This document shows, one piece after another, positions 56,513-62,879 of a DNA stretch of 64,000 nt. This DNA is from Escherichia phage ECO340P2. The translations under genes were made by a program, and so were the position numbers. The DNA lies in the sequence record OP172792. The stretch is one strand, 5' to 3'. Each line of letters starts with the position of its first letter. Positions within the stretch are counted from its first letter, which is position 1. The notes below the pieces were generated by a model. The model ran no database searches. It was not told the DNA's origin and worked only from the letters and a program-made list of their open reading frames with translations.

Positions 56513-56734
56513 CTACTCCGAAAGAACATTCACTTCATCAGAGAAAAATACGTAATCACAACCTTCCCAAACATCTTCTTCAAACCACTCCCATCCCTCA
56601 ACTTTGGACATTTCTTCTATCGTAACAAAGAATGTTGTCATATCATCGCTAACAAGATGTGCTTCAACAACAAAAGGAATCTGAACATTCTCAAAACCAA
56701 CATAACCCAATACATCGCAAACTCTAATTTTCAT
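56513..56734 (-). CDS. small acidic protein, EWF..DYVFF pair member
   Basis: VEGWEWFEEDVWEGCDYVFFSDE resembles the 62019-62249 product. Confidence 0.5.
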   Translation of the reverse strand: MKIRVCDVLGYVGFENVQIPFVVEAHLVSDDMTTFFVTIEEMSKVEGWEWFEEDVWEGCDYVFFSDEVNVLSE

Positions 56735-56938: not shown

Positions 56939-57139
56939 TTATTTATCTTGCTTGTATCTTACAAGGCGATCACACTCTAGGTCAAGAAATTTCTCCGCAT
57001 TTCGTTCATGTTTGAGCACAATACATTGTTCTTTCCAGTCTGTAGCTCTTTGCTGCGCTGCTCCTGGGTCAAAATCCCAAAGCCATGCCGCGAAAAGAAC
57101 AACCATAACAATTATCAAGAAACTAAACACTATTGGCAT
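56939..57139 (-). CDS. hypothetical small membrane protein
   Basis: ATG after AGGAGGA; hydrophobic helix IVFSFLIIVMVVLFAAWLW. Confidence 0.45.
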   Translation of the reverse strand: MPIVFSFLIIVMVVLFAAWLWDFDPGAAQQRATDWKEQCIVLKHERNAEKFLDLECDRLVRYKQDK

Positions 57140-57444
57140 TGCACATCCTCCTGTGTAGCATGATCTTTTACCCATTTTATACGGGCAGCATTCAAATGCA
57201 ATAGCCCGTTTCTTTGTGCAAAATCATATTTAAACCAGTCTCCGTCATCAAACGGGTATTCTTCAGACAACCCTGCTTCTCGAAATTGCATTTGCATTTC
57301 ATAATTTAGATCATCGTAACCACCAGTCCAAAGGTAGAGGCAACTACATAATCCTTTATCATGCCAGAAAGGATTATTATCTGGAGCACCAGTTAATAGC
57401 CAGTTATGATATGCCTGATAAAATTCTTTAAGTTCTTCTGACAT
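57130..57444 (-). CDS. paralog family A member
   Basis: FYQAYHNWL, GAPDNNPF, GLCSCL, YPF, RIKWVKDH. Confidence 0.55.
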   Translation of the reverse strand: MSEELKEFYQAYHNWLLTGAPDNNPFWHDKGLCSCLYLWTGGYDDLNYEMQMQFREAGLSEEYPFDDGDWFKYDFAQRNGLLHLNAARIKWVKDHATQEDVQCQ

Positions 57445-58655: not shown

Positions 58656-58936
58656 TCAATAGTGATCCACTCGTATGCCCCGTTCAGATCCATTTCTTTA
58701 TAAACAACAAGCCCACGCTCACGAAGAATTGCTACTGCTTCATCCATCCATTTCACCTGATTGTAGATTTCCCCTGGGTGAGTAGGAGAATTATCCAAAC
58801 CAAAATCAGATGGTGTGAAATTTCTTGAAGAGTTCCCCGCTCGTGCTTCAGCAAAACATGTCTCGATCACTTCTTCAACAGGGAAGTTGAAGGAAGCTTC
58901 TTTTGCAATACGGCGTAACTGTTCAGTCAGATTCAT
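58637..58936 (-). CDS. hypothetical protein
   Basis: 99 aa ORF. Confidence 0.5.
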   Translation of the reverse strand: MNLTEQLRRIAKEASFNFPVEEVIETCFAEARAGNSSRNFTPSDFGLDNSPTHPGEIYNQVKWMDEAVAILRERGLVVYKEMDLNGAYEWITIDWSEVK

Positions 58937-58963
58937 CTTATTCTCCTTTCGTTGTGTGAAACA

Positions 58964-59401
58964 TTACAGCAGATCTAATGCTTTCAACTCTTCTTTCAAT
59001 GATTCAGGCAGGTCACATTCAATGTCAATCAGAGATAACAAGTGACCAACAATGCCTTCCAGATGTTGATACTCACTATAACTTATAAATTCAGAATTGT
59101 AAACAGAAACATCCTTAGTTTCTTTCACAACTTCCCCCGCAGACACGCACATAAAAAAGTTACGCTCTCCGCGAGCTAACAATATCTCCCAACTCCTGAA
59201 CGGATACTGTCCAGCTTCAATAATATCCCCGCTGTCCAATAAAGTCAATGAGCAAACAGACCCTGATTCACTAACATCTTCGACGCGGAAACAAGACCCT
59301 TCAATCAAAGCTGCCATTTTGAAATTTTCATCAGAGATCATAGAGTAAGCTTCACATGCAGCTTTGCTTTTGAAACAGTAAACAGCATTAGCTTTGAACA
59401 T
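58964..59401 (-). CDS. paralog family B member (MFKxG..Y.FKS N-terminus)
   Basis: MFKANAVYCFKS; tandem with three related ORFs. Confidence 0.55.
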   Translation of the reverse strand: MFKANAVYCFKSKAACEAYSMISDENFKMAALIEGSCFRVEDVSESGSVCSLTLLDSGDIIEAGQYPFRSWEILLARGERNFFMCVSAGEVVKETKDVSVYNSEFISYSEYQHLEGIVGHLLSLIDIECDLPESLKEELKALDLL

Positions 59402-59410
59402 AATAACTCC

Positions 59411-60196
59411 TTATTTTATTACCGCAGTAGGCTCAATACTAACAACACCAATACGCTCATAGATCTCAACAGTAGAAACTGGGTATTCTTCCTTCATCTT
59501 TTTTGCTTCTGTGGCGATCTCTTCGTAAGAATGTGACACCAGTTGGACATTCATACCTTTAACAATAGCATAGTGTTTAAAATTCGCTGCGGGTTCCTCT
59601 TGTTTAGGCTCAACAACATCTTTAATATTTTTAAAATAAGGGTTATCACTTTTGATTAGCAGCGCACAAGCTTCCTTGAACCAACCTTCACCTGCTACAT
59701 GATTTGTATTACATACAAGCCTACGGATTGCTGTTACATCTTGTCCAACCATCTTTGTGATCACGAAAGGATCATCACCAATAAGATCGGAAATTTTTCG
59801 GTTTACATTGTTTGTCGTTTGTCCGCCGTCAATATAATTGGCGAAAAGCTTACGATCTTGTTCACTTGCAAACTTATAGACACCACCTTCTACAAAGACA
59901 CAGCCCCCTGTAGGAGAATCTTCATAATCTTCAGGGGTATGTTCTTCAAAACGAGCATAATCCATGCAACTTACAAGCTTATAACCTTCAGGGAAAAGCC
60001 CAGAACCACCTTCGATGATTTTATTTGTGTCTAATACCTTCACCTTGGACACAGAACCAAGAAAATCAACATCCAAAACTTTAAATTTACTGTCTTGAAT
60101 GCAACCTACAAAGAAAGCGTTACGAATACTAGCTTTACCAAAATTGTTTTTGGTATCCTTTGATTTGAAATTGTAAACAAAACCTACTTTAAACAT
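59411..60196 (-). CDS. paralog family B member
   Basis: MFKVGFVYNFKS ... VSTVEIYERIGVVSIE. Confidence 0.55.
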   Translation of the reverse strand: MFKVGFVYNFKSKDTKNNFGKASIRNAFFVGCIQDSKFKVLDVDFLGSVSKVKVLDTNKIIEGGSGLFPEGYKLVSCMDYARFEEHTPEDYEDSPTGGCVFVEGGVYKFASEQDRKLFANYIDGGQTTNNVNRKISDLIGDDPFVITKMVGQDVTAIRRLVCNTNHVAGEGWFKEACALLIKSDNPYFKNIKDVVEPKQEEPAANFKHYAIVKGMNVQLVSHSYEEIATEAKKMKEEYPVSTVEIYERIGVVSIEPTAVIK

Positions 60197-60208
60197 AACA
60201 TTCCCCTT

Positions 60209-60667
60209 TTAAACAAAAGATACGCCGATGGTAGCAACAACCAAACGTTTATAAACTTCAACCTCTTCTGTAGGATTAGCCATTTTATGCTCTGCTGCTT
60301 CTTTCAAAGCTTCTTCATAACTTTCAAATCCAGAGATACAGGTGTCATCAGTCATTACAACATACCACTCTTCTTTTGTTGTATCAACAGGTTCTTCTTG
60401 AGGTTTTCCACGACCACCACGAACACCACCGTCAACAAAATAATCTATATGAGCAGAATTGATTATGTAACGATCCCCATCGCCAGCAGTGATAATACCG
60501 TCTCTCATACCTATCACAACCATTGACAAGATATTACCATTTGCATCAGTGCTCAACACCTCGAAAAAATTCTCTCCAATGATAGCAGCAATACTGTTAT
60601 CAAAGGTAGAATATAGTCGCATATAATCTTCATCCTGGAAACGGTAAACATGACCTTCTTTGAACAT
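60209..60667 (-). CDS. paralog family B member
   Basis: MFKEGHVYRFQD ... EVEVYKRLVVATIG. Confidence 0.55.
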   Translation of the reverse strand: MFKEGHVYRFQDEDYMRLYSTFDNSIAAIIGENFFEVLSTDANGNILSMVVIGMRDGIITAGDGDRYIINSAHIDYFVDGGVRGGRGKPQEEPVDTTKEEWYVVMTDDTCISGFESYEEALKEAAEHKMANPTEEVEVYKRLVVATIGVSFV

Positions 60668-60673
60668 TTGGCT

Positions 60674-61129
60674 TTACTCCTTATCAATAGTGATTGTGGC
60701 GTTTGCTACTGCAACACGAGCGTAAATCTCAACCGTCTTCGACGGATAATCCTTCTTAGCTTTTGTAGCGACTTCAGAAGCTTTTTCAAAACTAGAACAA
60801 ACATCTACACACTCTGATCCTACGATCACAACATGCCATTGTGGTTCTGCTTTACCCATTGTTTCCTCCTTTACTTCTTCAAAATATTTAAATTCTTCGT
60901 TATCAATCAAATAAGTATACGAATTAAATCCTGGGGTAACACCTGCTGTATAGAGGGTACCATTGACATAAAACTCAAGAACATGACCATACTTATCATC
61001 TGTATTCATAACTTTGAAAACTTCGTTTCCAATCGCTTGGCAAACAGCAATATTTGCTTTGTCATGTGTTGCCATATCTCCTTGGTCAGCAACGCTTTTG
61101 AATTTATAAGTAAGCCCTACTTTAAACAT
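60674..61129 (-). CDS. paralog family B member
   Basis: MFKVGLTYKFKS ... KTVEIYARVAVAN; ATG after AGGAG (ORF-track start 61210 overlaps upstream gene). Confidence 0.55.
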   Translation of the reverse strand: MFKVGLTYKFKSVADQGDMATHDKANIAVCQAIGNEVFKVMNTDDKYGHVLEFYVNGTLYTAGVTPGFNSYTYLIDNEEFKYFEEVKEETMGKAEPQWHVVIVGSECVDVCSSFEKASEVATKAKKDYPSKTVEIYARVAVANATITIDKE

Positions 61130-61316
61130 GATGTGCTCCTTCTTGTTCAAGAGTAAAAGGAATGATCTCACCATAGCTGTATTGCATGGCATCCACTTCT
61201 GCTTCTGCACGTTGTGCTAGTTCTAATGTTGCACAGATCTTGTAAGGGACAGTGCTGCATTGGCTCCAGCCTGGGGTATTCTTTGTTACTAAATATACAG
61301 TAGTTCCTTTATTCAT
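61122..61316 (-). CDS. hypothetical protein
   Basis: 64 aa ORF. Confidence 0.5.
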   Translation of the reverse strand: MNKGTTVYLVTKNTPGWSQCSTVPYKICATLELAQRAEAEVDAMQYSYGEIIPFTLEQEGAHHV

Positions 61317-62018: not shown

Positions 62019-62249
62019 TTAATAGACAATTTCATATTCGTGAGGAAAGAAAACATAATCTTCCCCTTCTCGTGCATCTATCTCGTCCCAAAACCATTCC
62101 TGCACTTCCATCATCTTCGAGAATCGCACATGAGCAAGCCCACTGTATTCCACCGTAGCTTCCAGCACAAGTGGAAATTTTGCATGTGCCAATCCTTTAT
62201 AACCACCATCATTCTCAATACGAATTTTCATGCGTTTCATATTATGCAT
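62019..62249 (-). CDS. small acidic protein, EWF..DYVFF pair member
   Basis: EVQEWFWDEIDAREGEDYVFFPHE. Confidence 0.5.
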   Translation of the reverse strand: MHNMKRMKIRIENDGGYKGLAHAKFPLVLEATVEYSGLAHVRFSKMMEVQEWFWDEIDAREGEDYVFFPHEYEIVY

Positions 62250-62510: not shown

Positions 62511-62879
62511 TTATTCAATGCAAGCATTATTTGCATCTTCAATGCGATCTTTCACCCATTGAAGACGTAACGTGTTGGTATGACACGCCAAGTTTATACA
62601 CTCTGAAAGGTAATCCATGCAATCTGCATTGAACGGAAGATTGTAGTCCAGCCCTGCACATGTAAATTGTTTCCTCATTTCATATTTCAAACGGTCCAAC
62701 AAACTATCCCGCCATCTTCTATCTTCTTCTCTAGTTGTCTCACCAACAAAATCATCTACATAATCCACCAGACAACCACATAAGCCACTCGTTGTGCGAT
62801 TCATTGCAGGATAGTTGGCAATCCATGCTTTATAGAAGCGAAGCAATGTTGCACTGCTCAACGGAATACTATTTGTCAT
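62511..62879 (-). CDS. paralog family A member
   Basis: FYKAWIANY, SGLCGCL, LPFN, RLQWVKDRI; ATG after AAGGAGA (ORF-track start 62894). Confidence 0.5.
   Translation of the reverse strand: MTNSIPLSSATLLRFYKAWIANYPAMNRTTSGLCGCLVDYVDDFVGETTREEDRRWRDSLLDRLKYEMRKQFTCAGLDYNLPFNADCMDYLSECINLACHTNTLRLQWVKDRIEDANNACIE

Follow-up and report, generated by a model that had tools for sequence, protein, structure and literature searches.

The closest described relatives of the proteins reported here are GoF (ComC-alpha), Frd.2 and MotB.1 of phage T4, Tevenvirinae early proteins that have been grouped in a family with an 'LSm-like fold', and for which a five-stranded GoF fold, with FeoA as its best solved neighbour, was published in 2025 (Kim et al. 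2025; PMC12152347). In the same study only the GoF(D25Y) variant raised the stability of gene 41 mRNA. GoF is an abundant T4 early protein, dispensable under laboratory conditions, and frd.2 scored as a fitness gene in a CRISPR interference screen. Changes in mRNA level, or suppression of the restriction caused by rho mutants, are known for mutant forms of GoF only. The T4 family combines a homologous N-terminal domain (N-domain) of about 88 residues, predicted to form a five-stranded barrel with FeoA as the nearest solved fold, with a flexible linker and then a variable C-terminal domain; its proteins are small and acidic, occur in several copies per genome and are located among small genes of unknown function. 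Here we analysed a 64,000-nucleotide stretch of Escherichia phage ECO340P2 (sequence record OP172792), referred to below as the window, in which four minus-strand genes lying side by side, named A to D, encode proteins that resemble the T4 family in each of these respects. They differ from it in belonging to a phage of the Stephanstirmvirinae and not of the Tevenvirinae, in being adjacent and not dispersed, and in including one protein (B) with two barrels. We propose, with a probability of roughly 0.6, that these genes constitute a copy-number-variable tandem array of GoF/Frd.2-superfamily early host-takeover genes.

The open reading frames (ORFs) lie exactly where the first-pass annotation had placed four adjacent minus-strand genes of 145-261 amino acids. 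They are transcribed in the order D, C, B, A with gaps of 6-12 nucleotides between them, and each is preceded, 6-8 nucleotides before its start, by a Shine-Dalgarno-like ribosome-binding site (AAGGAG or AAGGGG):

60674-61129, minus strand: gene D, 151 amino acids, ORF with ribosome-binding site
60209-60667, minus strand: gene C, 152 amino acids, ORF with ribosome-binding site
59411-60196, minus strand: gene B, 261 amino acids, ORF with ribosome-binding site
58964-59401, minus strand: gene A, 145 amino acids, ORF with ribosome-binding site

All four proteins are connected by pairwise BLASTP matches within their first ~65-90 residues. For C and D the alignment extends from end to end (E 3e-15), and residues 1-64 of B align with A at 41% identity. 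Since residues 1-44 of B match residues 1-44 of D (E 2e-4) while residues 100-257 of B match residues 1-147 of D (E 3e-8) and also align with C, B contains the N-domain twice, and a profile search likewise returned two N-domain matches in this protein. The relationship was then measured by a leave-one-out test, in which a profile built without one of the proteins was searched against the 671 six-frame ORFs of the window. The omitted protein was recovered in every case, with E values of 5e-11 for A, 4e-16 for B, 9e-9 for C and 2e-10 for D, the best unrelated ORF standing at E 0.3-0.9. Moreover, hhalign aligned the A-type with the C/D-type alignment over 88 columns with a probability of 98.9% and an E value of 1e-17. 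The similarity thus has profile-profile support and spans an N-domain of ~88 residues, well beyond the first residues to which it might have been confined. The profile search found no further member of the family within the window.

The sequence signatures on which the four genes had originally been grouped hold in part. Of the proposed N-terminal signature, MFK-x-G-x-x-Y-x-F, the opening MFK is present in all four proteins, but the glycine is replaced by asparagine in A; besides MFK, the residues common to all four are Y8, F10, F38 and F83, and the invariant N-domain residues (F2, Y8, F10, I33, F38 and F83) are hydrophobic. The proposed C-terminal block, V-[ET]-[IV]-Y-x-R, is limited to B, C and D, where it sits in a C-terminal domain of ~55 residues, and is missing from A, whose tail is unrelated. 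Nor does the description of the middles as variable apply to B, in which this part repeats the whole N-domain. The resulting domain boundaries, all on the minus strand, are as follows:

60866-61129 (D residues 1-88), minus strand: N-domain of D, followed by a disordered acidic linker
D residues 99-137, minus strand: C-terminal domain of D, beta-beta-alpha-beta, carrying VEIYARV
60422-60667 (C residues 1-82), minus strand: N-domain of C; a Gly/Arg-rich linker comes after it, and the C-terminal domain carries VEVYKRL
59906-60196 (B residues 1-97), minus strand: N1, the first N-domain of B
59597-59905 (B residues 98-200), minus strand: N2, the second N-domain of B
59414-59596, minus strand: C-terminal domain of B, carrying VEIYERI
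59135-59401 (A residues 1-89), minus strand: N-domain of A
58967-59083 (A residues ~107-145), minus strand: C-terminal tail of A, predicted to form two helices

In the alignment, the tail of A shows the motif SY..Y..LEGI.GHLLSL.D..CD.P..L..EL, which is conserved in 40%-identical orthologs.

Homology to the T4 proteins emerged at the level of profiles. A profile made from the five N-domains of the window only detected residues 5-91 of T4 GoF at 29.9 bits, and once it had been widened with the matches of an exhaustive search, it scored GoF at 54.9 bits, Frd.2 at 25.7 and MotB.1 at 11.6. By hhalign, the match to GoF reached a probability of 98.1% (E 9e-14, 89 columns) and that to Frd.2 92.7% (E 4e-7). 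P0042, a protein of a T4-like Proteus phage with the same two-domain build, gave a direct tblastn match to Tequatrovirus goF/comC-alpha. In a PHROG scan all four proteins matched phrog_3710 (E 2e-5 to 5e-41; C at E 4e-34), B matched PHROG families in two stretches, and B and D also matched phrog_13003/phrog_2980, annotated as 'goF mRNA metabolism modulator'; phrog_3710, phrog_622 and phrog_5347 are families of unknown function. These families are automated clusters without tested function, and phrog_22975, the cluster to which A itself belongs, is confined to this group of phages. Taken together, we regard it as very probable that the four genes belong to the GoF/Frd.2 N-terminal-domain family.

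Two-domain proteins are also present in T4-like phages, for example Proteus phage PM2, Pectobacterium phage PM2, Yersinia phage TG1 and the Aeromonas phages Aeh1 and phiAS5, several per genome. Foldseek aligns their whole architecture with that of the window proteins over about 150 columns, with E values down to 1e-9, at an identity of only 15-25%; none of them has been characterised. As to precedence, annotation pipelines have already given some of these genes a 'goF' label in GenBank records of sister phages, our literature search found no paper naming both Phapecoctavirus and goF, and PMC12152347 treats the family in Tevenvirinae only, makes no mention of phi92, phAPEC8, Stephanstirmvirinae or paralogs and uses 'tandem' for a reporter assay only. 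What is new here is modest, and consists of the family membership outside T4-like phages, the tandem layout of four genes and five barrels, the shared VEIY C-domain and the mapped crossover points.

Scans of Pfam, NCBIfam and PADLOC yielded no significant family, with weak, sub-threshold Pfam signals only (FRD2, DUF7336 and DUF2782), the PDB, searched by sequence, gave nothing beyond a designed repeat protein and a chance match to a toxin component, and nothing was found when IMG/VR was scanned with protein A. Word-indexed protein searches had poor recall, returning 12, 8 and 5 proteins, and the exhaustive profile search gave 59 representatives at E <= 1e-3, including proteins with two or three barrels. 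The giant repeat proteins among the matches of the exhaustive search were rejected as repeat or compositional artefacts, because the full domain was never covered in them. These repeat-rich, adhesin-like proteins (P0016, P0019, P0024, P0035, P0040, P0048, P0062 and P0067) have 614-3266 amino acids, all but one 1184-3266, and each shows 4 to 16 matches to a short stretch of the profile (41-84 for most), with E values down to 2.5e-26.

Structure prediction with AlphaFold2, for which the input alignments were 12-14 sequences deep, agreed with this assignment. The model of D has a mean predicted local distance difference test score (pLDDT) of 87.8. In it, five strands, with a pair of helices placed after strand 1, account for residues 1-86; a disordered linker, in which the pLDDT falls below 50 at positions 90-93, follows at residues 87-98, and residues 99-137 adopt a beta-beta-alpha-beta arrangement. 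For the C-terminal domain of B, C and D, a resemblance to the ClpS adaptor was considered as a possibility. The model of A shows the same N-domain with pLDDT >90, a stretch below 50 at residues 90-106, and a two-helix tail at 45-72. The N-domain is thus predicted to be a five-stranded barrel of the FeoA/SH3/LSm-like kind, and its best solved structural neighbours are FeoA and then the C-terminal SH3-like domains of IdeR, ScaR and DtxR. A bent five-stranded antiparallel sheet with FeoA/IdeR-type domains as the nearest PDB folds is a feature of the family of Kim et al. 2025, and the predicted fold has both properties. The order of N-domain, flexible linker and C-terminal domain of variable structure is likewise that of the GoF family. 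The four proteins are acidic, with isoelectric points (pI) of 4.4-5.7 and net charges of -4 to -15, compared with a pI of 4.6 for GoF and 4.4 for Frd.2.

The number of genes in the array varies among close relatives. Across the 2.3-kb region, identity is 100% with Escherichia phage ECO340P1 and ~97% with many genomes of Phapecoctavirus (Stephanstirmvirinae). As a side observation, two records with other host names, MG065650.1 ('Campylobacter phage B15') and OP562383.1 ('Acinetobacter phage vB_AbaM_ABPW7'), share ~97.5% identity with E. coli Phapecoctavirus over window positions 58900-61200, and their host labels look doubtful. Within Phapecoctavirus, A was found in 61 records and C in 57 (at least 90% identity), D in 23 and B in 16 (tblastn counts for D), and all four genes occur together in 4 records only. 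A is therefore core, C near-core, and B and D accessory; being naturally absent from many relatives, B and D are dispensable. At the syntenic position, between flanks of 70-87% DNA identity, the copy number ranges from 1 to 4, with the following arrangements:

D-C-B-A: this window, ESCO37, REC and DIJ07P1
C-B-A: ev052, ESCO13, ESCO25 and ECML-183-2
D-C-A: BI-EHEC, tuntematon, iGC_EC001 and dw-ec
C-A: ESCO5
C/B chimera, then A: phAPEC8

Phage phiWec179 has two copies, and phi92, the type phage of the sister genus, a single one, gp003, which lies 1.3 kb from the left end just past the terminal repeat and is preceded by a 58-amino-acid gene resembling the small ORF found directly upstream of D in the window:

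61122-61316, minus strand: ORF of 64 amino acids (phrog_24303), directly upstream of D with an 8-nucleotide overlap

This ORF was seen only in genomes carrying D and is gained or lost with it, so the two behave as one module, whose counterpart in phi92 is the pair gp002 and gp003. The start of D itself is ATG (61129), replaced by GTG in two relatives, DIJ07P1 and dw-ec. A longer D beginning at an upstream GTG (61210) was considered and rejected, because the ribosome-binding site GAAGGAG, the family alignment and the 8-nucleotide overlap with the upstream ORF favour the MFK start. GenBank annotation of D is inconsistent in this respect (loci L005, L008 and L013), the gene being 456 nucleotides long in some records and 519 nucleotides, from the upstream start, in others.

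Comparison of these genomes located the junctions at which members of the array have been joined, gained or lost. The relevant stretches of the window are:

60186-60196, minus strand: start of gene B, ATGTTTAAAGT, one microhomology arm for gain or loss of B
59391-59401, minus strand: start of gene A, ATGTTCAAAGC, the other microhomology arm
60657-60667 and 61119-61129, minus strand: starts of genes C and D, with the same opening as the A and B starts
60390-60403, minus strand: part of C that encodes the linker, CCTCAAGAAGAACC, where the phAPEC8_0024 chimera has its crossover
about 59592-59605, minus strand: stretch of B matching the C linker, CAAGAGGAACCC

In the genomes lacking B that we examined (BI-EHEC, dw-ec, iGC_EC001, tuntematon and ESCO5), the 3' end of C and the sequence upstream of B precede A, and A begins with ATGTTTAAA in all of them, that is, with the start of B fused to the body of A. 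In B-containing genomes, A begins with ATGTTCAAAG after the 3' end of B. From this difference in the A start it follows that the boundary of the B insertion or deletion lies inside the 11-nucleotide microhomology that encodes the MFK start. The module of D and the 64-amino-acid ORF is also joined at start codons. A second kind of junction was found in phAPEC8_0024 (P0004), which by blastn consists of nucleotides 1-278 of C followed by nucleotides 595-786 of B, and thus joins the C N-domain to the B C-domain; the crossover falls within the shared linker sequence CAAGA(A/G)GAACC. Two further hybrids were noted. In P0008 the D barrel is paired with another C-domain. The metagenomic protein P0009 consists of the first 53 residues of a protein like that encoded at 62019 and of B residues 143-261, the join lying at a shared 'EGWF'; its contig is 1.3 kb long, and the protein represents either a genuine recombinant between families or a chimera of assembly, and may be an artefact.

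In our explanation, crossovers take place at the near-identical starts of 11-14 nucleotides (ATGTTYAAAG...) and in the shared linker and C-domain sequence, and the array grows and shrinks because its members have these sequences in common. One may go further and imagine that the MFK starts and the shared linker and C-domain serve as built-in recombination joints, through which GoF-like modules are shuffled, fused, duplicated and swapped to yield new host-targeting specificities. As candidate examples of such shuffling one may count the N-N-C fusion of B, the chimera of C and B in phAPEC8, the P0008 and P0009 hybrids, and the arrays of 1 to 4 genes. This idea is speculative and in our view probably goes too far; if true, the array would be an early-gene toolkit whose modules reassort fast and serve host takeover or counter-defence.

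The first-pass annotation had further attributed the four genes to local duplication and divergence driven by diversifying selection on an interaction surface. The paralogy is real, but the duplication is neither recent nor demonstrably local. The paralogs are only 25-40% identical and form no common cluster in a neighbour-joining tree of the N-domains, in which the deeper nodes are not resolved; recent local duplication was rejected because they are not monophyletic in this tree. Instead, an A-like protein of L015 is the partner of A (bootstrap 88) and a D-like protein of L004 that of D (bootstrap 99), and A, B and D each have closer counterparts in other phage contigs. The N-N-C architecture of B is kept in the distant homolog P0015 (27% identity). 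The metagenomic contig L015 carries a B-like N-N-C protein (27% to B) followed directly by one that resembles A (40%) and shares its conserved tail, from which it follows that the pairing of B and A predates the divergence of these phages. In L015 and L004 the flanking genes are 70-87% identical to the window in DNA, and the cassette is unalignable at the DNA level except for a 70%-identical D stretch in L004. On this evidence the paralogs are ancient.

Nor do the data show diversifying selection. Ratios of nonsynonymous to synonymous substitution rates (dN/dS), calculated by the Nei-Gojobori method from pooled pairs among 7-12 Phapecoctavirus orthologs per gene, were 0.14 for A, 0.10 for B, 0.17 for C and 0.49 for D, which indicates that each paralog is kept by purifying selection, with D the least constrained. 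Segregating sites, 25-53 in number, are too few for site-specific tests, and this leaves room for episodic or site-limited positive selection. As for variation on an interaction surface, the conserved residues do lie mostly in the hydrophobic core and the loops are variable, but positive selection on the surface lacks support. The variable gene content fits a flexible accessory locus and is not evidence for such selection.

From ~44.5 kb to the end of the window nearly all genes are small minus-strand ORFs, and the GC skew is reversed there; it changes sign twice, at about 10 kb and again at about 44 kb, and the second change coincides with the start of this block. Sites resembling promoters or terminators do not exceed the frequency seen in shuffled sequence. 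Because of this and of the tight packing, the four genes can be read as one transcription unit, and we infer that they are co-transcribed as part of a single long one. Their location in the minus-strand small-gene block near the left genome end further suggests that the array is expressed early. Other paralogs are present in this block. One family, with a shared 'SGLC.CL' motif, has members at 62511-62894, 62869-63213 and 57130-57444, all on the minus strand and of 127, 114 and 104 amino acids (BLASTP E 2e-31, 2e-13 and 1e-9), of which the 127-amino-acid member matches phrog_2510 (function unknown). A small pair of 76 and 73 amino acids is encoded at 62019-62249 and 56513-56734, also on the minus strand (E 3e-12).

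What the array does can be framed only tentatively, and by analogy with the T4 genes. The genes would be expressed early, as one co-transcribed set near the left genome end, and the barrel would serve as a scaffold by which each protein binds a host macromolecule during takeover, the paralogs differing in specificity. If goF genetics are a guide, the likeliest target would be a host protein, possibly one acting in mRNA turnover or Rho-dependent termination. As the proteins are strongly acidic and without Sm motifs, binding to a host protein is favoured over direct Hfq-like RNA chaperoning, and direct RNA binding is less likely. We rate this specific functional reading clearly lower than the proposal as a whole and hold it to be doubtful.

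Several observations weigh against our proposal. The match to MotB.1 is marginal, at an hhalign probability of 60%. In the hhalign alignment the equivalents of the GoF suppressor sites D25 and G84 (H22 and K81 in D) are not conserved and differ among the paralogs. The case for early expression has a positional basis only, and since the neighbouring genes belong to PHROGs without annotated function, they provide no functional context. Finally, neither wild-type GoF nor MotB.1 nor Frd.2 has a known function itself; wild-type GoF and MotB.1 had little effect, and GoF pull-downs recovered only GoF itself (PMC12152347). With the function of the wild-type family unknown and only D25Y active, the functional part draws on a weak analogy.

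The strongest competing explanation, a sharpened form of the idea in the first-pass annotation, is that the array is a counter-defence or host-range bank in an arms race, in which each paralog inhibits a different defence or host factor, and gain, loss and replacement track the hosts. The near-universal presence of A and C, with B and D accessory and all four in 4 records only, would suit such a bank, as would the replacement of the cassette in related contigs by 27-40%-identical members between flanks of 70-87% DNA identity, and the position of the genes near the first-injected genome end. The acidity of the proteins points the same way, many phage inhibitor proteins being acidic. On the other hand, dN/dS lies far below 1 for A, B and C and at 0.49 for D, and no known anti-defence family was found in the Pfam, PHROG and NCBIfam scans. 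There was no PADLOC match either, the best in PADLOC-DB standing at E 0.036-0.037 over short stretches, though that library consists of defence proteins and not phage inhibitors, and has little bearing on anti-defence. We therefore consider this explanation unlikely, while counting it ahead of the remaining ones.

Considerably less probable is that the proteins are Hfq-like (LSm) RNA chaperones, forming rings that bind phage or host RNAs directly and thereby control mRNA stability. That the family is named 'LSm-like' and that GoF(D25Y) stabilises a reporter mRNA (PMC12152347) speak for it, as does the pipeline label 'goF mRNA metabolism modulator' given to Phapecoctavirus homologs. However, neither Sm1/Sm2 motifs nor a Pfam LSM/Hfq match was found in the four proteins, and net charges of -4 to -15 argue against basic RNA-binding faces. 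The structural neighbours, FeoA and the SH3-like C-terminal domains of IdeR, ScaR and DtxR, suggest a function like that of FeoA or otherwise related to metals, for instance as modulators of iron uptake or of metal-dependent repressors, but we give this very little credence: the proteins have no Pfam match to FeoA (PF04023), differ from FeoA and the DtxR/IdeR SH3-like domains in showing no sequence-level match and no metal-ligand residues, and lie in the unrelated context of a phage early-gene block, so the resemblance is one of fold only. Chance or compositional resemblance, or ORFs that are non-coding, has a negligible probability, for although the BLASTP match of A to C is weak alone (E 0.002 in a 4-sequence database), this reading is already refuted by the leave-one-out values (E 9e-9 to 4e-16), the hhalign probability of 98.9%, the conserved orthologs with dN/dS < 0.5, the ribosome-binding site on each gene and the confident AlphaFold2 models.

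The locus shows the barrel domain in use outside T4-like phages, here in four adjacent copies with five domains. Phages that are natural, isogenic-like variants of one another and have two, three or four of the genes provide a ready allelic series, and comparing their host range, defence sensitivity and mRNA stability could reveal the function of the family. The mapped crossovers, in turn, offer a concrete view of how small phage early-gene families gain and lose members.

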